Notes under the pieces: model-generated | The model's input: the letters and a program-made list of their open reading frames with translations, nothing else | The model's database searches: none | Told to the model about the DNA's origin: nothing | Made by a program: the position numbers and the translations under genes | NCBI GenBank assembly: GCA_934202735.1 | Contig: CAKPYH010000001.1 | Coordinates: 75,614-139,613 of the forward strand | Length of the DNA: 64,000 nucleotides | Direction of reading: 5' to 3' | From: an uncultured Alphaproteobacteria bacterium | GTDB taxonomy: Bacteria; Pseudomonadota; Alphaproteobacteria; CAAHEQ01; UBA3637 | Shown: positions 26,795 through 55,326 of the stretch, one piece after another | Layout of the letters: every line of letters begins with the position of its first letter | How positions within the stretch are numbered: the stretch's first letter is position 1

Positions 26795-27142
26795 TTATTC
26801 TTTACCCTGAGCCTGTGCGATTTTCAAAAAAGAATTCAAAGCCGACACATATTCGGGAGACTGATCTTGCAAGTTCAAGAACAGATCTGTCAATTCCGGC
26901 GAAAATTGCTCATACTGCAAAATGCCGCGATCCATGAATAATTGGTACACATCGGTCCCCAACGCGGTTGCGATTTCGTCCAACGTACTGATTTTCGTAC
27001 TGGCCATCGCGTTTTCCAGTTGACAAACCATCTCAACGGTTTTATTGATTTTTTCGGCCAGTTGCGCCTGCGTCATCCGCCGTTCTTTTCTCAACCGCCG
27101 AATATTACGAGATAAAATTAAAAGTGAATTCTTTTTGATCAT
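26795..27142 (-). CDS. XRE-family (Cro/C1-type HTH) transcriptional regulator, 115 aa
   Basis: ...IRRLRKERRMTQAQLAEKINKTVEMVCQLENAMASTKISTLDEIATALGTDVYQLF... Immediately upstream of the str operon promoter region. Confidence 0.7.
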   Translation of the reverse strand: MIKKNSLLILSRNIRRLRKERRMTQAQLAEKINKTVEMVCQLENAMASTKISTLDEIATALGTDVYQLFMDRGILQYEQFSPELTDLFLNLQDQSPEYVSALNSFLKIAQAQGKE

Positions 27143-32954: not shown

Positions 32955-33004
32955 AGTATAATTGACTGTATTGATACCTTGCATAAAATTTTTAATAAAT
33001 ATAC

Positions 33005-33559
33005 GCAATATCGCGATCATTTTAGAAGGGAGATTCAAAGTGAATAAAGTACTCAATTTGATTTGTAGGACAGCACTTTTGGTATTTATGATGATTTTTA
33101 ATGCAACGATTTTATGGGGTATATATCACACAGAGAGTGTGTTTGCCCTGTGTTTGGGCATTTTATTTTTTGCCTATTTATATTTTCAATTGTTCAGAAA
33201 AGATAACAGACAGAAAAATTCTTTTTGGGGATTGTTTGCAAATATTCTTTTACCGATTTACCTGGTATTATTTGTATCATATATATTTAATTCGTTATCT
33301 GATAAAAATCTATATCATGATCCCGTTCAAGAGGGGCTAACTATGTTTATGGGCATTTTGATCTGTGTTATCGTAATTCCGGCTTTTTCTGCCATACAAA
33401 GTTTTTTGATGTGTGAGTTTGCTCGCTTGTCATCATCTAATGAAAAAGATATGTGAGTATATCATACCTCTTGCAAAAAACAAAGGAAATTATGTAAAAT
33501 AGACGGTTTTCAATATCGTTGAGTTATAGCCCCCAAATTGCCCACATGACTGCACATAA
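33005..33559 (+). repeat. about 555-bp direct repeat, copy 1 (carries small membrane-protein gene); near-identical to 40806-41359
   Basis: Visually identical apart from a few substitutions (for example GTATAT versus GTGTAT, CCCCCAAATTG versus CCCCTAAATTG). Ends with core GCCCACATGACTGC (33540-33553). Confidence 0.9.
33040..33456 (+). CDS. small polytopic membrane protein (138 aa, about 4 TM), copy 1
   Basis: GTG start 33040 preceded by GGGAGA. VNKVLNLICRTALLVFMMIFNATILWGIYHTESVFALCLGILFFAYLYFQLF... Identical copy at 40840-41256. Confidence 0.55.
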   Translation: MNKVLNLICRTALLVFMMIFNATILWGIYHTESVFALCLGILFFAYLYFQLFRKDNRQKNSFWGLFANILLPIYLVLFVSYIFNSLSDKNLYHDPVQEGLTMFMGILICVIVIPAFSAIQSFLMCEFARLSSSNEKDM

Positions 33560-33580
33560 ATATAAAATAAAACATAAATT

Positions 33581-35860
33581 TTATTGAGTTCCTTTATGTT
33601 TCCAAGTACAATGATGTCCCGTACAGGTTATTATTGAAAATTCGTCTTTTTTTACCGCTTCTATGACATCATCAACAGTAAAAGTAAACTTTTTATCAGA
33701 TTCTTCCATACGCTCACAGTGATTCGGGAAATCAATAGACACCGTTCCGTCTTTTTTACCAAATAACTTTGCGCCACAAGCAATTTTTTTACCATTAAAT
33801 TCTTTGGCTTCTGTTGATGAAATATCCTTTCCTTGACCACCATCTGCACTAACGGCTAAAATAGCTAACCGCGAAGCATCCATTACAACTGAATTTGCAT
33901 AATGTTGAATCATTGCTTTATTGGCTCCTACTTCTGCTACTTTCTGGATTCCAGATAATATCGTTTTCGGATCGTTTAAGGTAGCATTATCACCACCATT
34001 AGCCATTGCAGTAAATAGGATTACTTTTTGCATTAAATCCATTGTAAAGCCTTTAAAACATTGTTCCGCTGATTTCCATTGTGATTCCGGTAATTTTGAT
34101 AAACAAGGCCAAGAATCAGATTTAACTTGTTCCATATCAATAGAGTCATCAATTTTTTTCATGACAGATGAAACTTTTGATGGATCTTCCAATGTATTTT
34201 GAACTATTGGCAAAATCATTTCTTTGAGAATCCCATCTTTTAATTCAGAATAATAGCTTTCTGCAGACGCAGGCAAATCATATTTTTGAATTGGCGTAGA
34301 TACCTTTAATAAATCTTGAACTTCCTGATTTAAATTAAAGATGGCGTATTGAGATGCTGTTTTACCTTTATTATCTTTGAGAGTTTTATCTGCACCATAC
34401 TGCAACAATAATTTTATCATTTTTGTATCTTCGGCGGATGATGCCGCTTTCATCAATGCTGTTACACCTGCTTTATCGACAGCATTCACATCTATTCCTT
34501 TTTTTAATAAATGCTCTAAAACGGTTGGTTGATTACATTGAATCGCAATAGATAATAAATTTTGGCCATACGCATTTTGAGTATTTATATCTGCACCATT
34601 TTTTAATAGTAAATCTATTATATCCAAGCGTTTTTGTATATAAGAGTTATAATCGGGTATTATAGTAAAAATACCGTCTTTTTTGAATTCATTAAAAGTT
34701 TTTTCATCTACTACTTCGGCACTTTTTATTAAAGCCGAATCACCATATTCGTCTTTATAATTAACATCTGCACCTTCTTGAATAAGTTTTTGTATCCCTT
34801 CTAATGTTGTACTTTCATAATCAATCTCTGATAATAATTTCATACTGTTTTTTGATTTTTGAGCTTCTGTATCGGATAAAGCAGTTCCCCCTAGAGCCAC
34901 TATATATTGGTTATAATTTGGATCCTTAATTAAATATTCATTTGTCTGTAATAATTGAAGAGGGGTTTTACCTTTCTCATTTTTGACATTAACATTAACT
35001 TTTTGTTCCAAAAGAAACTTTAAAGCATCGGGTTTTGCTGCTCCGGCGGCAACTATAATGGGATAGTCTTCCTTAACAGGGTGTTTGTAAAAAATACGTT
35101 CTGCTTGAACATTAGGGTCCGCGCCCAATCGCAAAAGATATTTAGCCATTTCCATAGATTTATGATTTTTTATAGCTTGCAAAAAGAGATAATTCAAATT
35201 TTCTTTTCCTATATCTAACCCAGCCTTTTGAAAAATAGATATGACTTCCGGATAAGAGCTATTTCTGACAATATCTTCATAAAAAGAAGCAGAATATTTA
35301 TCTTGTTGATGAATATTGGCGCCATTTGTTATAAGCAATTCTATAATCTCTGGTTTTGCGTCTAATATAATTGCAGATTTTAATGCAGAATCATTTCCAA
35401 ATATAGATGGGATTTCTGTTCTTACATCAGCACCAGATTGGATTAAAAACTCTACTACTCTTGGATCTTTATTACGCAAAGCAGATATTAAAGGGGTTTC
35501 TTTCATATTTTCAGCACCGATAAGTTCATTAACATCGGCTCCAGATTTAACTAAATATTGCACCATCTCTAATGTTCCATCAGCACATACCTGTTGAAAC
35601 ACAGAGGTATATTCTGTTTTAGCGTTTATATCCGCCCCGGCTTTAATTAATTCTGAAAAAATTGCAGTATCTTTTACCAGCATCAACGGGTAAATGCCTG
35701 ATTGTTCATCTGCTTGATTGACATTTGCACCATTCCTAATAAGAGCTTGAATTTCGGATAACGGTTTATTTTCTGCTAAAGCTTTTGTTAGTTCTGTAGC
35801 ATTTGCAGTATTGTAAAATAAACAAGACACTAAAACAGTACTTAATAATAAATTTTTCAT
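33581..35860 (-). CDS. ankyrin-repeat protein with N-terminal signal peptide (759 aa)
   Basis: Start ATG 35860 gives MKNLLLSTVLVSCLFYNTANA|TELTKALAENK.... Multiple ANK-type repeats (...NGANVNQADEQSGIYPLMLVKDTAIFSELIKAGADINAKTE..., ...GADVN..., ...LLKNGADINTQNAYGQNLLSIAIQCNQPTVLEHLLKKGIDVNAVDKAGVTALMKAA...). AT-rich codon usage. Confidence 0.8.
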   Translation of the reverse strand: MKNLLLSTVLVSCLFYNTANATELTKALAENKPLSEIQALIRNGANVNQADEQSGIYPLMLVKDTAIFSELIKAGADINAKTEYTSVFQQVCADGTLEMVQYLVKSGADVNELIGAENMKETPLISALRNKDPRVVEFLIQSGADVRTEIPSIFGNDSALKSAIILDAKPEIIELLITNGANIHQQDKYSASFYEDIVRNSSYPEVISIFQKAGLDIGKENLNYLFLQAIKNHKSMEMAKYLLRLGADPNVQAERIFYKHPVKEDYPIIVAAGAAKPDALKFLLEQKVNVNVKNEKGKTPLQLLQTNEYLIKDPNYNQYIVALGGTALSDTEAQKSKNSMKLLSEIDYESTTLEGIQKLIQEGADVNYKDEYGDSALIKSAEVVDEKTFNEFKKDGIFTIIPDYNSYIQKRLDIIDLLLKNGADINTQNAYGQNLLSIAIQCNQPTVLEHLLKKGIDVNAVDKAGVTALMKAASSAEDTKMIKLLLQYGADKTLKDNKGKTASQYAIFNLNQEVQDLLKVSTPIQKYDLPASAESYYSELKDGILKEMILPIVQNTLEDPSKVSSVMKKIDDSIDMEQVKSDSWPCLSKLPESQWKSAEQCFKGFTMDLMQKVILFTAMANGGDNATLNDPKTILSGIQKVAEVGANKAMIQHYANSVVMDASRLAILAVSADGGQGKDISSTEAKEFNGKKIACGAKLFGKKDGTVSIDFPNHCERMEESDKKFTFTVDDVIEAVKKDEFSIITCTGHHCTWKHKGTQ

Positions 35861-36148
35861 AATAATCCATCCCTTAAAAACATATATTGGCATGTTAGTA
35901 GAATTACATATTAAAGTCAACAAAATAATTTTGCTAATAATTCACATATAGCCCACATGACTGCCCCATCACCTGCCCCCTTTTACAGGCATTGTTTTTG
36001 ATTGACAAGAACTGATTTGTGTACATAAATCCCGGGATAAAAATGCTATTTTTTACAATTTGACAAGCTTTTGAATAAACAATCCTTGTTTTCTTGTTGC
36101 TTTTTGAAAAATATGTATGTATAAAGATCTTGTGAAAGGTGAAATGAG

Positions 36149-36601
36149 ATGAAAAAGAAGTTAAAATTTATTGGATTGGTGTTCTTGGGATGCATGCTAT
36201 CCACAAATGTGTTATCATGGACAACCACAATTAATTCGGTAAAAAATTATGAAAAATTTGTTTATGATGAAGATACAGAAATGTATACAGGGGATATTGA
36301 ACGGGTCTATATGGAGAAAAAAGCCCCCGATGGAAAGATTTATGTTTTATATGATTTGACAGTAGAACAAAAAGAAAATGATGATGGAACCCTGGAATCG
36401 TCTGATTATTCTCTTAAAACAGGAAACGATATTTATCCTCGCCAAATGGATGATTATTTTTTACTGGATTATCATTTCAGGCCTTTAACCCATTTAGGGG
36501 TTAAACTGGGCACACATAAAGGTCAAATTATTTTTGAGATTCCGGTCAATCAAAAAGATTTGCCCAAGACTTTACTTTATAAAAAGCAACCTGTAAAATA
36601 A
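36149..36601 (+). CDS. hypothetical secreted/lipoprotein-like protein (150 aa)
   Basis: MKKKLKFIGLVFLGCMLSTNVLSW... is a signal peptide with an imperfect lipobox. First gene of a 4-gene co-directional cluster. Confidence 0.45.
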   Translation: MKKKLKFIGLVFLGCMLSTNVLSWTTTINSVKNYEKFVYDEDTEMYTGDIERVYMEKKAPDGKIYVLYDLTVEQKENDDGTLESSDYSLKTGNDIYPRQMDDYFLLDYHFRPLTHLGVKLGTHKGQIIFEIPVNQKDLPKTLLYKKQPVK

Positions 36602-36617
36602 CTGATAGAAAAATAAA

Positions 36618-38237
36618 ATGAAATATGGTATTTTTTGCATAAGTTTATTTTTATCAACGCTGGCTCATGCTGATTATATACTTGATCAGGCAAAGATGGA
36701 TGCCGATATCCAAAAAGAATTATCGCAAAAGCAATATACTGTGGAGGATCCTTTGGTGTTGGTCAATCCTTATGGTATTTCTCCATTGAGTGCTCTTATT
36801 TCCTTTTCTACAAAAGAATCAACGCAGGCTTGTATCACAGTAAAAGGAAAAGATAAATATACCACTTTTTCAAAATGTTTTAATGATAGAACAAAAAATC
36901 ACTTGATCCCCGTCTATGGTCTTTATTTTGGGAAAAACGATATCGTATTAACGATAAAAGATAAAGATAAAAATCAAAGTAAAGAATATCCGTTGGAAAT
37001 TGAAACGGAAAAAATGCCTATCAACATGAAAGTGAATATTCAAAAAATAAACGCGGAAAAAATAAAACCGGGACTGACTTTTACAACACCCGGGGTTATC
37101 GTAAATGAGGGAAGCTACGCTTATGCATTTGATGCAAACGGTGATATTCGTTGGATTTTAACCGATCCGATCATGGGAAAAATGTCTCCGTTGCACGTGT
37201 TAAAAGATGGTACTTTAATGATGGGTTCTGAAGAACATGACCCAAAATATACTGTGGCGTATAAATCTCTTTATGAATTGGATTTGATGGGGAAAATTCA
37301 TCATAAAATCCAAGCCGAAGATGACATTCAACATGATATTGTCAAACTGCCTAATGGTAATTATTTGGCTTTGGTTAATGCAACGGGGAAACCCACGATT
37401 GCCGATTGTGTGGTAGAATTAACCCCCGATAATAAAGTCGTTGATCGCTTTGATATAGATAAAATTTTAGGGGTTGAAGATGAAAGAATTACGCCGCTTG
37501 TTGACCACTATCTTTATCATGATAACTATAAACGTGAAAAAATGGATGCCATGCATTTGAATTCTTTAAACTATGATCCTGAAGATGATAGCATTATTAT
37601 GACAGGAAGATTTTTTAACTTTTTATTGAAGATTGATCGTAAAACAAAACAAGTTAAATGGATTTTGGCAAATCCGATAAATACTTGGATAAAGCCACAC
37701 TTGCGGGATAAATTATTAAAACCGACAGATAAAAATTTTGATTATATCTATGGGGCTCACGCGGCAAAACCGCAAGGTCATAATCATTATACTGTTTTAG
37801 ACAACGGTCTTTATCGTGATATATATGACCAAGGTTCCGCACAACCCATTGAGACCTATAATCCTTCACGCAGTTGGTCGCGTGGCGTAGAGTTTGTTGT
37901 TGATGAAAAAAATATGACCGTTTCAGTCGCATGGCAATATAAACGCGGGCCAGAAATTTATACTCACTATGTTGGGGATGTAGATAAATATGAAGCAGGC
38001 CATTATTTAATGAATTTCGGTGCTGTCTTTGATGATAAAGATGAAACACCGGCCAGCGTTGAAACGGCATTAAATCCACAGAAACAACCGGCTCCTTCTT
38101 ATGCTAAAATCATTGAAGTCAAGGATGGAGAAGTTGTTTTTGAAGCACAAACAGCCGGCCTGTTAAATAATACGGTTTATCGTGTAGAACGTTTTGAACC
38201 ATACGTATTAGATACTGAATACAAATTGGGCAAATAA
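36618..38237 (+). CDS. putative periplasmic beta-propeller protein, arylsulfate sulfotransferase (ASST)-like, paralogue 1 (539 aa)
   Basis: Signal peptide MKYGIFCISLFLSTLAHA|DY. Motifs ...DIQHDIVKLPNGNYLAL..., ...AMHLNSLNYDPEDDSIIMTGRFFNFLLKIDRKTKQVKWILANP... and ...GAHAAKPQGHNHYTVLDNG... resemble the His-containing signature blocks of bacterial ASST (PF05935) as I recall them. Not verified by search. Confidence 0.4.
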   Translation: MKYGIFCISLFLSTLAHADYILDQAKMDADIQKELSQKQYTVEDPLVLVNPYGISPLSALISFSTKESTQACITVKGKDKYTTFSKCFNDRTKNHLIPVYGLYFGKNDIVLTIKDKDKNQSKEYPLEIETEKMPINMKVNIQKINAEKIKPGLTFTTPGVIVNEGSYAYAFDANGDIRWILTDPIMGKMSPLHVLKDGTLMMGSEEHDPKYTVAYKSLYELDLMGKIHHKIQAEDDIQHDIVKLPNGNYLALVNATGKPTIADCVVELTPDNKVVDRFDIDKILGVEDERITPLVDHYLYHDNYKREKMDAMHLNSLNYDPEDDSIIMTGRFFNFLLKIDRKTKQVKWILANPINTWIKPHLRDKLLKPTDKNFDYIYGAHAAKPQGHNHYTVLDNGLYRDIYDQGSAQPIETYNPSRSWSRGVEFVVDEKNMTVSVAWQYKRGPEIYTHYVGDVDKYEAGHYLMNFGAVFDDKDETPASVETALNPQKQPAPSYAKIIEVKDGEVVFEAQTAGLLNNTVYRVERFEPYVLDTEYKLGK

Positions 38238-38240
38238 AGG

Positions 38241-39404
38241 ATGAACAAAAAATGTATTATTTTGGTTTTATTATCTTTGTGCGGCATATCCGAGTACGCC
38301 ATTGCCGGGCCCACTTCAGATTTTTATGAATCATGGAAAGAAAAATTACATCATGATTATGGTTTTGATTATCGTATTCGCGCCGGATTTATGGCTCAAC
38401 GTGGTTCCCCAAGTGGCCATAAAACAGTCTTGCGCGATAAATATGAAATTGAAGCGAATTGGGAGGCTTTTGCTTCGGATAGTTTTGGACAAGGTTCTAT
38501 TCAATTTTTATACGAAGATATCAATTATCCCGGGATTGAAGGTTCTCTGATGGCTTCCAGATTAGGTGTTGCAACCCCCATAAATGATGATGCGTTGCAA
38601 CGGGAGTATTTCAAACGTTTGACATATACACATCAACTTCCCGGTTCATTAGATAATATCAGTTTATCGGTTGGACAATTCCTTATCGGAAATTTTGGAA
38701 AGACACGTTATAAATCAAAACCTCTTAATCATTTTAATAATTTTTCTTTGCAAAAAAACATGTCTAAAGCGTATCCGACAGGGGGCGTTGGGGGATATAT
38801 GACTTATAAGCCAACGCCTGATTTAACACTCATTACCGGACTTCAAAGTACAACGAATTATTTTCCGCAAAACATCAGTGTAAAACATCTTGATGCGAAT
38901 AAATGGACGAACTTTTTTTATATCTCATATTCACCCAAATTAACCGATTTAGGAAAAACAATCTTGACAGGATGGATTTATCACAGTCCAGCGATAAAAA
39001 AATATGAGGGACAATTTAATAAAGCATTTCAAAAATCTGCCGATGGATGGGTCATAACTATCAGGCAAGATATTGGTAAATGGACGGGGCTTATTAAAGT
39101 CAATGGGTCAACAGGTAATCGTATGGCCATTCGGCAAAGTTATTCGGCAGAATTAATGTATAACAATCCTTTAAATAGAAATGAATTAGATCAAATAGGA
39201 ATTGGTTTTGCCTCTAATAGGGTCAGTCATTTAAATAAAAAAGCAGTCCGATCTTGGGAAAATGTATTGGAAGGATATTGGTCCTGGGGGATTTCCAAGT
39301 ATTTGACGATTACACCAGACATTCAATTATACATCAATCCGGCCTTAACAAAGGATAGAAATACTGTTGTCGTAAATAGTATTCAAGCAAAATTTTATTT
39401 CTAA
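38241..39404 (+). CDS. putative outer-membrane beta-barrel protein/porin (387 aa)
   Basis: Signal peptide MNKKCIILVLLSLCGISEYAIA|GP. Alternating amphipathic segments. C-terminal ...NSIQAKFYF ends in Phe (OMP beta-barrel signature). Confidence 0.5.
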   Translation: MNKKCIILVLLSLCGISEYAIAGPTSDFYESWKEKLHHDYGFDYRIRAGFMAQRGSPSGHKTVLRDKYEIEANWEAFASDSFGQGSIQFLYEDINYPGIEGSLMASRLGVATPINDDALQREYFKRLTYTHQLPGSLDNISLSVGQFLIGNFGKTRYKSKPLNHFNNFSLQKNMSKAYPTGGVGGYMTYKPTPDLTLITGLQSTTNYFPQNISVKHLDANKWTNFFYISYSPKLTDLGKTILTGWIYHSPAIKKYEGQFNKAFQKSADGWVITIRQDIGKWTGLIKVNGSTGNRMAIRQSYSAELMYNNPLNRNELDQIGIGFASNRVSHLNKKAVRSWENVLEGYWSWGISKYLTITPDIQLYINPALTKDRNTVVVNSIQAKFYF

Positions 39405-39413
39405 AATATAAAA

Positions 39414-49061: not shown

Positions 49062-49768
49062 TTCGCCTGTTTACCTTATCTGATTTAGGAATCGGAAAAA
49101 TCCTGTCGCTGACACCGGCGCATCATCACTATTTGGCCCATGTCATGCGTCAAAAACCAGGTGATTCCGTGTTGTTTTTTAACGGTCGGGACGGCGAATG
49201 GATCGGACACATTCAAACTTTGAATAAACATGACGGTACCGTTTGTCTTACCCGGCAAACACGCCCCCAACCGGCCCCGGAACGCCTGATTTTATGCCCG
49301 GCTCTGATTAAAAAAGAAAACTTTGATTTAGTCTTGCAAAAAGCAACAGAACTAGGGGTTTCGGATATTTACCCGCTGCAAACGCAACGTACCGTGATCG
49401 GTAAATTGAATGCAACGCGGGCCGATCTGATTGTCCGGGAAGCCGCCGAACAATGTGAACGCCTGACCGTTCCGACCGTCCATACGCCCGCAACACCGGC
49501 ACACGTCTTGACCGCCTTATCCCCCGAAACAATACCGGTTTTTTTAACCGAACGAGGACACACAACGGCCCCTTTAACCGCGGGCCAAACGTATGCTTTT
49601 TTTGTCGGTCCCGAAGGCGGATGGACCCCTGATGAACTCACCGTGTTTCAGCGGGCCGGGCAGGGGATTTTCTGGCACCTGGGGGACACCATTTTGCGGG
49701 CCGAAACGGCGGCCCTAGCGGCTTTGGCATGTTGCCGTTTTGCGTTTACGGGAAAAACATCTGTTTAG
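49058..49768 (+). CDS. rsmE: 16S rRNA (uracil1498-N3)-methyltransferase, RsmE family
   Basis: 236 aa. MIRLFTLSDLGIGKILSLTPAHHHYLAHVMRQKPGDSVLFFNGRDGEW... and C-terminal ...FFVGPEGGWTPDEL... (SPOUT). Confidence 0.75.
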   Translation: MIRLFTLSDLGIGKILSLTPAHHHYLAHVMRQKPGDSVLFFNGRDGEWIGHIQTLNKHDGTVCLTRQTRPQPAPERLILCPALIKKENFDLVLQKATELGVSDIYPLQTQRTVIGKLNATRADLIVREAAEQCERLTVPTVHTPATPAHVLTALSPETIPVFLTERGHTTAPLTAGQTYAFFVGPEGGWTPDELTVFQRAGQGIFWHLGDTILRAETAALAALACCRFAFTGKTSV

Positions 49769-50051
49769 CCATTTCCATCAATTCCACCCGCGATGACTCC
49801 GGCAACGTGCCTATTTTTGCGGTTAAAGCGGCCTGAGAAATCGTACGGATCAAGTCCAAAGCCACTTGTCCCTGCTTGCCTTTTAAGCGAATACCTAAAC
49901 GGCACGGAAACACGCGTTCCAGCGTTGTAATCGGGGCCACAATCGCATAGGGCAGTGCTTGATTCATTTCATCGGGCGATACCACCACACACGGCCGTGT
50001 CAAAGTCCGTGTGGTACACAAGTACACATCAAAACGTTTTACCATTCCCAT
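49746..50051 (-). CDS. MazF/PemK-family mRNA interferase toxin (about 100 aa)
   Basis: MGMVKRFDVYLCTTRTLTRPCVVVSPDEMNQALPYAIVAPITT... Confidence 0.7.
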   Translation of the reverse strand: MGMVKRFDVYLCTTRTLTRPCVVVSPDEMNQALPYAIVAPITTLERVFPCRLGIRLKGKQGQVALDLIRTISQAALTAKIGTLPESSRVELMEMAKQMFFP

Positions 50052-50257
50052 TCCCCCCGTTCCCGAATCGGCTTTTGTCGGACACTGTCGCGGAACAATT
50101 CAAACCAAGCGGACCGTGTCTGCTGCGGTGCGGTTAAAATCACGGATCCGCCTTGCATATTCAAATTGACTTCATTTTGAAAACTGCAAGCCTGTATCAC
50201 ATTTTTCGGCAACCGAATCCCCATTGAGTTTCCAATTTTCACTAATTTTACTTTCAT
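50039..50257 (-). CDS. MazE/AbrB-type antitoxin (72 aa)
   Basis: MKVKLVKIGNSMGIRLPKNVIQACSFQNEVNLNMQGGSVILT... (SpoVT/AbrB swapped-hairpin). Overlaps the toxin start by 13 nt. Confidence 0.7.
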   Translation of the reverse strand: MKVKLVKIGNSMGIRLPKNVIQACSFQNEVNLNMQGGSVILTAPQQTRSAWFELFRDSVRQKPIRERGEWEW

Positions 50258-51780
50258 ACGCTTTTTCCTTTCACGACTTGAGCCAAAACCATGTATAATC
50301 GCCCGACATCAGACCCGATAACAATACTCATCAACAACTTATTTTCATCTTCTTTATCCAAAACCTGCGTCATGGATTCAAAGGCCCGCATATATTCGTC
50401 CACACTGCGCCGAAAAGCGGTATCTGATTGATATAATTCTTTGATTTTTTTATATTTACTATCATTGATTTCGGTCTTGATATGCCGCATAAAAACGGTT
50501 TTATCTCCACTATAATACCGTTCCCACAGGTTTTCTTCCGCTTTGGGCGAAAACAAGTGCGCCATATCCACCGATAATTCTTGCAAGCGAGTTAAAATAA
50601 TACCGGCTTCCTGCAACAAGTCATCTGTTTGTACCTGACGCACGATGGGTACGGTCCGAACGGTTTGTCCGGCTTTTTCAATCTGTCCGGCCACTTTTTC
50701 CGCCGTAGCCCGGAACGTTTCCAACGCACCTTGCACATCTCCTTTGGTTTGTGCAAAAGTTTGCGTGGCCTGCTGCATATTTTGAACCGCCGCCGCCGTA
50801 GCCTGAACAACGGATTCGGCTTGTTCTTTCAAGCCCGCTTCCACCACAGCCATACGATTGGCGGTCCGACCGACTTCCTGTTCCAACAAATCCCCGTGAG
50901 CCCGAAACACCGATAAGACTTTTTCCAGATTACCGAACAAGCGCGCATTTTGTTGCCGGGCACTGGTTTCATACAGGTTCACGGCTTCTTCAATCCTTGC
51001 CCCGTTTTGATTCAAAGCCGCCATGACTTGGTCCGCTTTTGTGACCGCTTGTTCGGATTGTTGATTGATATGCCCGATTTCGCCCAGCAAAGCCCGCAAA
51101 TCAGTTGCCTGACCACCTAAGGATTGGGTCAAGCGACCGGTTTCCTGAATGGTTTGCGAACAAACGCGTTCCAAAATAGCCGCCTGCTCGGAAAATAAAG
51201 CTGACGTGCGATCGGCTTGGGTATTGGCTGCATCCGTCATTTGGGCTAATTTTTGAATGTGATCGGCAATTTCCCGCACCGAATCAATGGTTTTTGTATC
51301 TACATGCTTGATGACGGCACTTAAATCACGGACCCATTTTTTCAAGTCATCCCGCACCGCCTGCGTTTGGTCATTGACGGCTTGAAACACCGTTCGGAAC
51401 TCGGTGATTTGGGTCCGTAAAGCATCGGTCAGTGCTTTGGTATATACCGCGCCTTCTTCGGTCGGATACACCAATTCATTCAAATACGAACGCAACACTT
51501 CCGCTTCGGTTTCCAACCGGTCCGTCCGGTCAAAATACGCACACACCAACCACACAATCACCATCGGCAAAGCTAATCCGCAGACCCCCCCGATAAATTC
51601 GGCCGGAGCCAGGTCATACCGATTTTGCCACCACCCCGATACCGACAGGTAGTGCCCGATAAAAACCATCCAAAGCAAGCTGAATATCCCCGAAATCCAC
51701 GTATATTTATTACGCCACCAGGGTCGCAAGATATGCCGTCCTTGAAACTCAAAGGTCAACTGATCCGACTTCACACGCAT
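50254..51780 (-). CDS. hypothetical membrane-anchored coiled-coil protein (508 aa)
   Basis: Two N-terminal hydrophobic helices (...WISGIFSLLWMVFIGHYL... and ...GVCGLALPMVIVWLVCAYF...) then about 400 aa of Gln/Ala/Glu-rich heptad-like sequence. The stop overlaps the mazE-like start (ATGA). Confidence 0.6.
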   Translation of the reverse strand: MRVKSDQLTFEFQGRHILRPWWRNKYTWISGIFSLLWMVFIGHYLSVSGWWQNRYDLAPAEFIGGVCGLALPMVIVWLVCAYFDRTDRLETEAEVLRSYLNELVYPTEEGAVYTKALTDALRTQITEFRTVFQAVNDQTQAVRDDLKKWVRDLSAVIKHVDTKTIDSVREIADHIQKLAQMTDAANTQADRTSALFSEQAAILERVCSQTIQETGRLTQSLGGQATDLRALLGEIGHINQQSEQAVTKADQVMAALNQNGARIEEAVNLYETSARQQNARLFGNLEKVLSVFRAHGDLLEQEVGRTANRMAVVEAGLKEQAESVVQATAAAVQNMQQATQTFAQTKGDVQGALETFRATAEKVAGQIEKAGQTVRTVPIVRQVQTDDLLQEAGIILTRLQELSVDMAHLFSPKAEENLWERYYSGDKTVFMRHIKTEINDSKYKKIKELYQSDTAFRRSVDEYMRAFESMTQVLDKEDENKLLMSIVIGSDVGRLYMVLAQVVKGKSV

Positions 51781-51863
51781 AAAAACCTCCTCATCACGTT
51801 ATAGACTATGGTACTCGCACGCCTATTATAAGACAAAAAAACACAAAAGGCAAGTTAAAAAAT

Positions 51864-51954
51864 AATTACTTTGTAATTACACATACAAAAATGTAATTAC
51901 TTTGTGTACACATTTCATTCTTGTAATTACATTGTAATTACGTAATTACAATGT
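51864..51954. repeat. cluster 1 of AT-rich (T)GTAATTAC(A) palindromic motifs, including a perfect 26-bp palindrome ACATTGTAATTACGTAATTACAATGT (51929-51954)
   Basis: GTAATTAC occurs 6 times in about 90 bp, between the holA stop (51957) and the start of the 508-aa gene (51780). Confidence 0.85.
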
Positions 51955-51956
51955 GC

Positions 51957-52979
51957 TTACCGATGCCGTTGGGCCACACCGGCGATTTGTAAAATCACGC
52001 GTGATAAAATGACTGTATCGGGCAATCCCGTTGTTTTGGCCTGTCGTTCGGTTGTCATCAACAAATCCAACACTTTCAAAACCGCCCCTTTTTTCCAAAC
52101 TTTCAGTTGTTGCTTCACCGCGTCAGTCCACCGAAATTGAGCCGGTTTTAGAACGTGTTTAACGGCCGCTTCCGGTCCCGCTTGTTCATACGTTTCCGCC
52201 GCCGCTAATAACCGATTGAAATACATAGATAACATCCGAATAATACTCACGACATTTTCACCGCGTGCCAACATCATATTATATTCTTTATCCGCCACGG
52301 TCATATTTCCCCCCGCCACCGCCATACACAAGGCATCTGCGGACGAATCGGTTGTGTCGGTCACCACGGCCAAGACATCATCGGGCGTCACGGTTTTAAC
52401 TTCCCCCAGATAAAGGACTAATTTATTCAACTCCTGGCGCGTCATCATCCGATTTTCCCGCAACCGTTCCACCAAAAGGGGCAGGGCGCGCGGATGAACC
52501 GATACCCCATGTTCGGCCAAGGTTTCTTGAATAAATCCGGCAATATCGGAATCATTTTCGGCATAGCAGGCCACCGCCAACACTTTCGGGTGTTGTTCAC
52601 ACAACGTCCGCAGAACCGATGCTTTACTGAGATTGCCCGCACTCAACAGGGTAAATGTATCTGTTTTCAAGTTATCCCAACAAGTTTGCACCGCTTCGGC
52701 CACCGTATTGTCTGCATTTTTAACCCAGATCAACTTGCGACCGCCGAAAAAAGACGCGGCATTGCTTTCATCGGCCAGGAATGTTTTGTTTTCTTTGATT
52801 TTATCGGGAGTTATTTTAATAACGGTTAAATCATCGTTCAAGTTCGGGACAATGATTTTACCGATTTTTTCCGCCGTTTCCTGAACCAGCCCTTCATCCG
52901 TTCCGAACACCAAAGCCCCCGCAAAATCCTGTTTTAATTGCGGTATCAACGCTTTAACTTGATATGGTTTGGCTTTCAC
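51957..52979 (-). CDS. holA: DNA polymerase III delta subunit
   Basis: 340 aa. MKAKPYQVKALIPQLKQDFAGALVFGTDEGLVQETAEKI...LTVIKI.... Follows lptE as in the conserved leuS-lptE-holA arrangement. Confidence 0.8.
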   Translation of the reverse strand: MKAKPYQVKALIPQLKQDFAGALVFGTDEGLVQETAEKIGKIIVPNLNDDLTVIKITPDKIKENKTFLADESNAASFFGGRKLIWVKNADNTVAEAVQTCWDNLKTDTFTLLSAGNLSKASVLRTLCEQHPKVLAVACYAENDSDIAGFIQETLAEHGVSVHPRALPLLVERLRENRMMTRQELNKLVLYLGEVKTVTPDDVLAVVTDTTDSSADALCMAVAGGNMTVADKEYNMMLARGENVVSIIRMLSMYFNRLLAAAETYEQAGPEAAVKHVLKPAQFRWTDAVKQQLKVWKKGAVLKVLDLLMTTERQAKTTGLPDTVILSRVILQIAGVAQRHR

Positions 52980-54409: not shown

Positions 54410-55326
54410 ACAACGGATCCGACTGTCGTCAACCGTTGCAAAATCACATCTAATTTATCCAACCCGGTATAAGAAATCACAACCGTTCCCCCTTGTCCGT
54501 TCCAGTTGATACTCACCGGTGTTTTCAAGACCGCACTCATTTCTTTTTCCAAAGCCAAAATATCTTCGTTTTTGCCGATATGCGTATCGGGTAGGGGGAT
54601 TTTTTTAGGCCGCTGAGCTTTGGGTTTATAATGCCCGACCATTTGTTCCACTTGTCGCACACTCAACCCTTTGGCCACAATTTCCGCCGCCAAAGCCGAT
54701 GCATTTTGGGCCGTCAACAAAGCCCGGGCATGTCCTATCGTTAACTCTTTGTTTTCAAGCAACTTTTTAATATCATCGGGTAAATCAAGCAACCGCATCA
54801 TATTGGCCACATGACTACGGCTTTTTCCCACAACTTGGGATAACTCATCTTGGGTATAATGAAACTCAACCAATAACCGTTTATAGGCTTCTCCTTCTTC
54901 CAACGGATTCAAATCTTCCCGCTGCAAGTTTTCCACTAACGCCACTTCCAGTGCGGCTTTATCATCAAAATCTTTAATGATAACAGGGATTTGCTTTAAT
55001 CCTGCCTGTTTAGAAGCCCGAAACCGGCGTTCCCCGGCAATAATTTCATATTGATCCGGGTGTCCCGGCCGGACCCGTACTAACAACGGTTGTAAAACCC
55101 CTTTTTCCTGAATGGAATGTACCAAATCCGCCAAAGCCGATTCGGCAAATACCCGTCGCGGCTGATACGGACTGGGGACCAAAGAATCTATGGATACCGC
55201 CGAAATGCCGTTGGTTGTCGGTTCACGTGAAACATCCACCGGCCCCGATAGAAAATCATCCCCCATCAAAGCGCTTAATCCTTTACCCAGACCTAAATTT
55301 TTATCCATTTTGTATCTCCTTTTCAC
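54406..55326 (-). CDS. parB: chromosome partitioning protein ParB
   Basis: ...GLGKGLSALMG..., ...YEIIAGERRFRASKQAGLKQIPVIIKD..., HTH ...ELSQVVGKSRSHVANMMRLLDLP... The ATG at 55308 (MDKNLGLGKG) may be the true start. Confidence 0.9.
   Translation of the reverse strand: MKRRYKMDKNLGLGKGLSALMGDDFLSGPVDVSREPTTNGISAVSIDSLVPSPYQPRRVFAESALADLVHSIQEKGVLQPLLVRVRPGHPDQYEIIAGERRFRASKQAGLKQIPVIIKDFDDKAALEVALVENLQREDLNPLEEGEAYKRLLVEFHYTQDELSQVVGKSRSHVANMMRLLDLPDDIKKLLENKELTIGHARALLTAQNASALAAEIVAKGLSVRQVEQMVGHYKPKAQRPKKIPLPDTHIGKNEDILALEKEMSAVLKTPVSINWNGQGGTVVISYTGLDKLDVILQRLTTVGSVV

Follow-up and report, generated by a model that had tools for sequence, protein, structure and literature searches.

Type II toxin–antitoxin (TA) loci are autorepressing operons, and their operators usually consist of two or three sites placed directly before a mobile two-gene cassette, with the operator of the known loci lying directly upstream of the antitoxin gene. 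Some antitoxins also act beyond their own operon, as does MqsA, which acts on the host genes rpoS and csgD through a palindrome at their promoters. [quoted passage not shown] The E. coli mazEF 'cab' operator and the Kis/Kid (parD) operator, which belong to the same antitoxin and toxin families as the genes considered below, have several antitoxin-dimer sites made of short AT-rich palindromes, toxin-enhanced binding and alternating chains of the two proteins (PMC4333400, PMC3879964). MazE of E. coli has three sites, arranged around ATATAT, in a 47-bp operator directly upstream of mazE, its affinity is raised by MazF, and on multi-site operators both pairs, MazE/MazF and CcdA/CcdB, assemble into alternating chains (PMC4333400). 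The F-plasmid ccdAB operator, as far as the cited account of the avidity model describes it, is likewise long, with many short palindromes that are thought to be covered by an alternating chain (PMC4333400), although CcdA is a ribbon-helix-helix protein, the locus is plasmid-borne and there is no site inside a host coding sequence.

The locus described here lies in a 64,000-nucleotide stretch of DNA (hereafter the window) from a lineage of gut or rumen Alphaproteobacteria that is known only from metagenomes. The original prediction had drawn attention to a dense group of AT-rich palindromes next to holA and had proposed for it either an operator array for a dimeric regulator or a small mobile palindromic element. 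The array, referred to as L1, is built on the core GTAATTAC. The extended core, a 12-mer, is identical to the right half-site of relO, TTGTAATTACAA, and cores of the TTGTAATTACAA type are 12-bp palindromes formed by the relO-type hexad [A/T]TGT[A/C]A (PMC2812701). The two systems share adjacent short palindromes about one helical turn apart, and by analogy the likeness would extend to binding by antitoxin dimers, co-repression by the toxin and autoregulation of a TA operon. However, relO has two sites 12 bp apart that span -10 to +17, whereas the arrays considered here have 6–14 sites, in pairs spaced by 11 bp, that are mostly upstream of the -35 element. Moreover, RelB belongs to the ribbon-helix-helix class, in contrast to the cis-encoded antitoxin of this locus, which is of the AbrB/MazE type; no RelB-like gene was found next to the array, where the 72-aa protein matches AbrB-type MazE/VapB models and not ribbon-helix-helix models. 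In comparison with E. coli mazEF, the differences are the core itself, an array of 90–190 bp, a gene of 508 aa before mazE and a putative second target gene.

Array L1 (51862–51954, not assigned to a strand) contains seven core-like elements. Five of them are exact GTAATTAC cores, starting at 51873, 51893, 51923, 51934 and 51942, and two are degenerate: ATAATTAC at 51862–51869, which has one mismatch, and GTGTACAC at 51904, which is part of TGTGTACACA (51903–51912). The claim that six cores lie in about 90 bp therefore stands as regards the cluster but not as regards the count of exact cores, since the sixth is the one-mismatch ATAATTAC, which means that the array begins 2 nt before the originally given 51864, and a seventh, degenerate core is also present. 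The elements are paired at a spacing of 11 bp (51862/51873, 51893/51904 and 51923/51934), with a pair period of 30–31 bp, and an extra, overlapping core at 51942 creates a perfect 26-bp palindrome, ACATTGTAATTACGTAATTACAATGT (51929–51954, not assigned to a strand), in which two cores 8 bp apart are joined with the usual ACATT/AATGT flanks. The sequence of this palindrome is as first described, as is its end 2 nt before the holA stop codon (51957–51959, minus strand). The identity of holA, the DNA polymerase III delta subunit gene that is the upstream neighbour of L1 (51957–52979, minus strand), is backed by Pfam (PF06144 and PF21694). No open reading frame of at least 40 aa was found across L1.

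A palindrome that starts 2 nt after a stop codon and can form an 11-bp hairpin could be the intrinsic terminator of holA, but we consider this to be highly improbable: its stem is AT-rich and has no U-tract, the array runs on for ~90 bp, and the palindrome is specific to the window's lineage, with the closest holA-type relatives (L125 and L126) having ordinary 11-bp pairs at the same place. A terminator scan of 51700–52050 and 60350–60700 found none.

The core is strongly enriched in the window, where GTAATTAC was observed 11 times relative to 1.10 expected, a number reached by none of 100 shuffles, and TGTAATTACA with up to one mismatch was present 14 times relative to 2.34 expected. There were seven 11-bp core pairs versus 0.31 in composition-matched shuffles, and all seven were inside two arrays. 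Similarly, the palindromic TGTNNNNACA occurred in the window only in L1 and in the array at 60519–60632. The latter array, L2, had been proposed to be of the same family, and it is indeed homologous to L1, 8.6 kb away, with 76% identity in the alignment and a shared module order. Solitary cores at 580 and 11580, whose surroundings are GC-normal and coding-like, look like chance matches.

One other identity considered for the array was a parS/ParB centromere site (tGTTTCACGTGAAACa near parAB), which was rejected as the array sequence is unrelated and canonical parS is elsewhere in the window. Canonical parS (GTTTCACGTGAAAC) was identified at 55220–55233, 56684–56697 and 56760–56773, two of the sites being exact and one having a single mismatch, around gidB-parA-parB, an arrangement that probably places the window near the origin of replication. 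The window also contains a low-GC island at ~33000–42000 (0.32–0.38, versus ~0.47–0.51 in the rest of the window), which was probably acquired horizontally.

The relevant genes are all on the minus strand, in the order lptE, holA, L1, p508, mazE-like and mazF-like. A sigma-70-like promoter is predicted at 51825–51853 (minus strand), with a -35 of TTGCCT, a 17-nt spacer and a -10 of TATAAT (10 of 12 matches), and 8 nt separate the proximal core pair of L1 from the -35 downstream of it. The operon begins with p508 (50254–51780, minus strand), whose ATG at 51780 comes after GAGGAGG, so that L1 lies 82–174 nt upstream of this gene, in agreement with the approximately 85–175 nt that had been claimed. 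The 508-aa product combines hydrophobic segments at its N-terminus, which we read from the sequence as membrane-spanning, with an extended coiled coil and, at the C-terminus, a conserved domain of the MamY_C type. The p508 stop codon overlaps (ATGA) the start of the gene for the 72-aa MazE-like antitoxin of AbrB/MazE/SpoVT type (50039–50257, minus strand), which itself overlaps by 13 nt the gene for a 101-aa MazF/PemK-like toxin (49746–50051, minus strand; PF02452, E=4e-15). The matches of the 72-aa protein were weak but consistent (PF04014, E=0.018; NCBIfam VapB, E=3e-5; PDB 7d2n, E=0.015), and a homologue search with it returned six close relatives. Its AlphaFold monomer model was of low confidence (pLDDT 55.7), and only the order of secondary structure elements, beta-beta-alpha-beta-beta, was used from it. 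A fold assignment from weak sequence matches and a low-confidence model counts against the explanation that we favor below, in which this protein is the binder.

For comparison with other genomes, p508 homologues were collected, 36 metagenomic loci were retrieved and further loci were obtained from metagenome-assembled genomes (MAGs). A genome collection was also scanned for three cores within 3–33 nt of each other; among the matches listed, five alphaproteobacterial MAG loci were relevant and most of the others were unrelated repeat families. Of these families with GTAATTAC, one in a Prevotella MAG had a 22-nt unit, GTAAAGACTCAGTAATTAC, at more than 20 dispersed loci, and tandem repeats of 41 nt and 33 nt were present in a Bacteroidaceae MAG and in Nostoc, respectively (L004, L009, L010, L047 and other JAZUKC01 loci; L024, L028 and L034; L039). 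Soil MAGs had 'caccGTAATTAC' repeats.

The gene upstream of p508 differs among the related loci, being holA in the window, L125 and L126, miaA in at least 14 loci, cysS in L160 and other genes in L123, L124, L133 and L158. Whichever neighbor precedes, the cores are always upstream of p508 (18 related gut alphaproteobacterial loci). Since the same array follows miaA, cysS or other genes elsewhere and always precedes p508, we regard its adjacency to holA as incidental, with no functional tie between them. The arrays of the related loci have 6–14 sites and span 90–190 bp, the p508 array of L160 having 14 cores in ~190 bp. A common layout was apparent in 17 of 21 loci, comprising a core, three (or four) nucleotides, a second core, 2–8 nt, TTGnnn, 17 nt (18 in one locus) and TAnnnT. 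The distance from the end of the -10 to the p508 ATG is 21–44 nt in 16 of these 17 loci and 71 nt in L158, for which the start was set by hand. An extra core is present inside the spacer between the -35 and the -10 in L131, L132, L138 and L140. The consensus of the extended core is aaTGTAATTACAwt, and the dominant spacing of 11 bp accounts for 29 of the 75 adjacent spacings in the 21 loci. The cores are kept at orthologous promoters of species with 31–47% GC while the spacers between them diverge, strain-level substitutions are found in the spacers and not in the cores, and relatives differ by whole units, as do L125 and L126, the difference between which is one whole 31-nt unit. This cross-species conservation of the cores, together with the core pair found 2–8 nt before the promoter in 17 of 21 loci, supports the proposal of an operator array for a dimeric regulator, a role that would still be predicted from sequence.

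Several observations were made on the related loci that concern variation in array architecture. In L160 (9746–9931) and L162 (3026–3173), which represent the lineage of the GCA_9653199xx and GCA_9653202xx MAGs, the canonical core is paired with a variant, GTAATAAC/GTTATTAC, and pairs recur every 27 bp instead of every 30–31 bp. An IHF-like site, (W)WTCAANNNNTTR and often TTCAATAAGTTA, separates the distal core cluster from the proximal one in 9 of 12 miaA-type loci (L130, L131, L132, L139, L140, L143, L148, L149 and L153), at approximately -118 to -147 from the p508 ATG; the compact L1 array of the window has no such site. Its placement between the clusters may be a sign that the operator is bent or looped. 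Two stray core pairs with 11-bp spacing were also seen away from the p508 and M23 loci, in L133 (1757–1775) and L158 (7583–7601), one of them inside a transketolase ORF, where it encodes SNSKVIT, and the other between two convergent gene ends.

The Rickettsia palindromic elements (RPE) and the REP/BIME elements are short palindromic repeats that closely follow stop codons. They occur in dispersed copies, tens to hundreds in number, whose presence is variable, and RPEs can sit in-frame within ORFs and be translated. That L1 and L2 are a mobile or dispersed repeat of this kind (REP/BIME-, MITE- or RPE-like) that landed after holA and xseA would account for the two homologous copies 8.6 kb apart, for both arrays beginning at or within 2 nt of the upstream stop codon and for copy number changing by whole units, and dispersed GTAATTAC families do exist in other phyla. 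Those families are built of different units, however, and we found no spread of the kind that the mobile alternative in the original prediction implies. There are only two kinds of locus in 64 kb, and 42 of the 44 exact cores in 158 kb of related loci are within 400 nt upstream of p508. The position relative to p508 and M23 is conserved in species whose p508 identity is as low as ~27%, it is the cores that are conserved while the spacers diverge, and in reading through the arrays we noticed neither terminal repeats nor target duplications. Unlike RPE and REP/BIME, the motif is, in the sequence covered, limited to two conserved loci and tied to a promoter, and we give the mobile repeat hardly any credence.

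The order p508-mazE-mazF is kept down to ~27% p508 identity. In all 29 related loci that contain them and have sufficient downstream sequence, mazE and mazF come after p508, usually at a distance of 1–30 nt, and wherever the sequence of a related locus extends far enough, mazF comes after mazE. Across the clade mazE and mazF are at least as conserved as p508 (window 49746–51780; L119, L123–L158 and L160). So tight a clade-wide cluster of three genes is unusual for a toxin–antitoxin pair, which suggests that p508 is a functional third partner. Arrays were present in all 18 loci that have mazEF and sufficient upstream sequence, versus none of the four p508 loci without mazEF (L134, L135, L159 and L161), and no cores were found at the xseA–M23 junction of a mazEF-less contig. 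One mazEF-positive genome has a very large p508 array and no M23 array. Given that the mazEF-less loci come from at most about two lineages, these counts of co-occurrence are not independent events, and as such they are suggestive of a cognate link between the array and mazEF. The MazE-like N-terminus, M.xKLxKIGNSxG(I/V)R(L/I)P, and the C-terminal GEWEW are nearly invariant in 30 loci, and the near-invariance of the N-terminal, predicted DNA-binding segment matches the invariance of the core across genomes of 31–47% GC. No other DNA-binding gene was consistently in cis with the array among the related loci, mazE being the only one.

The gene for the regulator could lie elsewhere in the genome. 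The array may be an operator or activator array for another, trans-encoded factor, such as an envelope regulator, a cell-cycle regulator or an XRE protein, with mazEF as passengers whose co-occurrence is confounded by phylogeny, and although we think this unlikely it is the alternative with some real weight. Sites centered at about -42 to -58 and further upstream have the geometry of class I/II activators, and an M23 peptidase and a membrane coiled-coil protein would make a plausible envelope regulon. Speaking against such a factor is that the near-consensus promoters (TTGACA-17-TAnnnT) would need no activator, that cores are located inside the promoter spacer in several species and that, among DNA-binding genes, mazE alone is always in cis. 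The XRE protein (26795–27142) that had been put forward as a candidate regulator has no core near its own gene, and the MazE-like antitoxin is a better candidate. As for a cell-cycle regulator, the CtrA-type box TTAA-N7-TTAA was absent from the array on reading, the 11-bp repeat being TTAC-N7-TTAC.

Array L2 (60523–60631, not assigned to a strand) consists of four 11-bp pairs with an exact 30-bp period (60523/60534, 60553/60564, 60583/60594 and 60613/60624, those starting at 60534, 60553, 60594 and 60613 being variants). It is located within the coding sequence of an M23 peptidase (59706–60638, minus strand), where it makes up the first ~46 codons in frame, MKRNYNVYTSSKCNHNVITFLLCNYKVITKYISAYIVITFYSFTAAA, which end in a signal-peptide-like segment. 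The M23 ATG (60636–60638) overlaps the last codons of xseA (60628–61959, minus strand), and the xseA stop codon, TAA at 60628–60630, is inside the first L2 core. This overlap of the M23 ATG with the end of xseA is found in most of seven species, and in L164 there is an AAGGAGG and ATG of its own upstream of the M23 array. It was also observed that the codons for the C-terminal QGDLF of xseA (CAAGGAGAT...) double as a Shine-Dalgarno-like AGGAG 9–10 nt before the M23 start, in the window (60636–60660) and in L007, L008 and L163. The arrangement suggests that xseA and M23 may be translationally coupled. A candidate promoter inside the M23 array was rejected, as the TTGACA downstream of L2 represents codons for A-L-T-F-D and has no -10. 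Whereas the targets of MqsA are single palindromes in promoter regions, L2 is a periodic array, in-frame in a coding sequence and conserved in the clade.

L2 is predicted to be translated as part of the M23 peptidase, since the M23 frame is open through all cores in seven species (365 codons with no stops, versus 44 and 30 stops in the other frames). Approximately 80 diverse M23 orthologues (among proteins P0121–P0240) have 2–6 xNYKVIT units with a 10-aa period, ending in the signal-peptide-like YYIVITFSLPAxA and then LTFD, and the extension before the conserved ALTFD has lengths of 44, 54, 64 and 74 aa, that is, steps of 10 aa. An 11-bp core pair translates as xNY and then VIT, and a period of 27 or 30 nt keeps the units in frame. 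In loci found by protein similarity, V-I-T was encoded by GTA-ATT-ACA in 11 of 13, 13 of 13 and 11 of 13 codons, respectively. Near-fixed codons of this kind indicate that a DNA or RNA motif is under selection, the open frame being an additional constraint. The stop-free frame, the number of orthologues with the repeat and its regular period, and the Shine-Dalgarno sequence and ATG ahead of the array in L164 could instead be taken to mean that the peptide repeat is the selected feature and the non-coding p508 copy a derived duplicate. We hold this to be very improbable, given that the V-I-T codons are almost without synonymous variation, that the non-coding p508 array is more widespread and tied to a promoter, and that other M23 orthologues, from sister lineages, have plain lipoprotein signal peptides and no repeats.

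A motif selected as RNA is a separate matter. Known MazF enzymes cleave at ACA or U^ACAU (PMC5408214), and every core contains ACA, with many containing UACAU or UACAA. On this basis the arrays might be clusters of MazF cleavage sites, or mutually pairing hairpins, that render the M23 mRNA and holA/miaA read-through transcripts hypersensitive to the toxin or to degradation. The position of L2 in the 5' coding part of M23, which is predicted to be transcribed and translated, agrees with this, as does the finding that the L1 strand folds better than shuffles (z = -2.5). However, the p508 array is upstream of the predicted promoter, so that the mRNA of the operon itself would not contain it, both the constant distance from the -35 and the pairing at 11 bp speak for recognition of DNA, and there was no Rfam match, the covariance-model search having given only a chance-level match to mir-33 (E=0.8). 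We thus judge it improbable that the arrays act primarily as RNA; an added layer at the RNA level is conceivable, but it cannot explain the p508 array, which is anchored to the promoter.

The explanation that we favor, with confidence somewhat above even, is that the array serves as a multi-site operator for the promoter of p508-mazE-mazF, a vertically inherited operon repressed by its own MazE-like protein with MazF as co-repressor, and that the second array acts as a brake on M23. Binding of a protein, the identity of that protein and the direction of regulation are points that we infer from the sequence. Each palindrome of 10–12 bp would be the site for one protein dimer, and the working unit would be two such sites 11 bp apart, or about one helical turn, with units repeated every 27–31 bp from the end of the upstream gene to 2–8 nt before a near-consensus -35. 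The operon's own MazE-like (AbrB-type) antitoxin is the presumed binder, and the MazF-like toxin may bridge its dimers as a co-repressor, such that the operon represses itself. The near-consensus promoters and the cores within the promoter spacer favor repression as the mode of action. L2, which lies just past the M23 start codon and within the presumed xseA–M23 transcription unit, could when occupied block RNA polymerase, as a roadblock or internal brake, and in that way would make the expression of a cell-wall hydrolase dependent on how the TA module stands.

Features expected of a TA operator are present, namely adjacent 10–12 bp palindromes about one helical turn apart, co-occurrence with an antitoxin gene and a core pair 2–8 nt from the -35 of an antitoxin/toxin operon. 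Other features fit less well with the MazE-like operator. The sites are mostly upstream of the -35, with centers near -47 and -58 in the window, which would suit an activator too, and the 508-aa gene between the array and mazE is atypical. The inter-pair period of 27 bp in L160 and L162 implies that the units are not always on one face of the DNA. Further sites may also lie in other parts of the genome, as do the two stray pairs of L133 and L158 in theirs.

We speculate further, and only tentatively, that a domesticated MazE/MazF-like pair, in an operon with a membrane coiled-coil protein, runs a small cell-envelope regulon, in which the in-frame M23 operator dictates the xNYKVIT repeat, changing by whole units, and possible MazF motifs let the antitoxin act on DNA and the toxin on RNA. 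The evidence suggests that, unlike the usual TA loci, the pair is clade-wide and vertically inherited, shares its operon with a conserved membrane protein and has an unusually long, periodic putative operator, another copy of which lies within the gene for a peptidoglycan hydrolase, as part of its coding sequence. The 72-aa protein and the 8-bp core make this a directly testable system in poorly studied gut bacteria. If true, the protein sequence of the hydrolase would have been shaped by overlapping DNA-binding sites, as reflected in codons that hardly vary, a period divisible by three and the gain or loss of whole units, and, if the antitoxin binds both arrays, the locus would be a natural example of the control of the cell wall being linked to a TA module.
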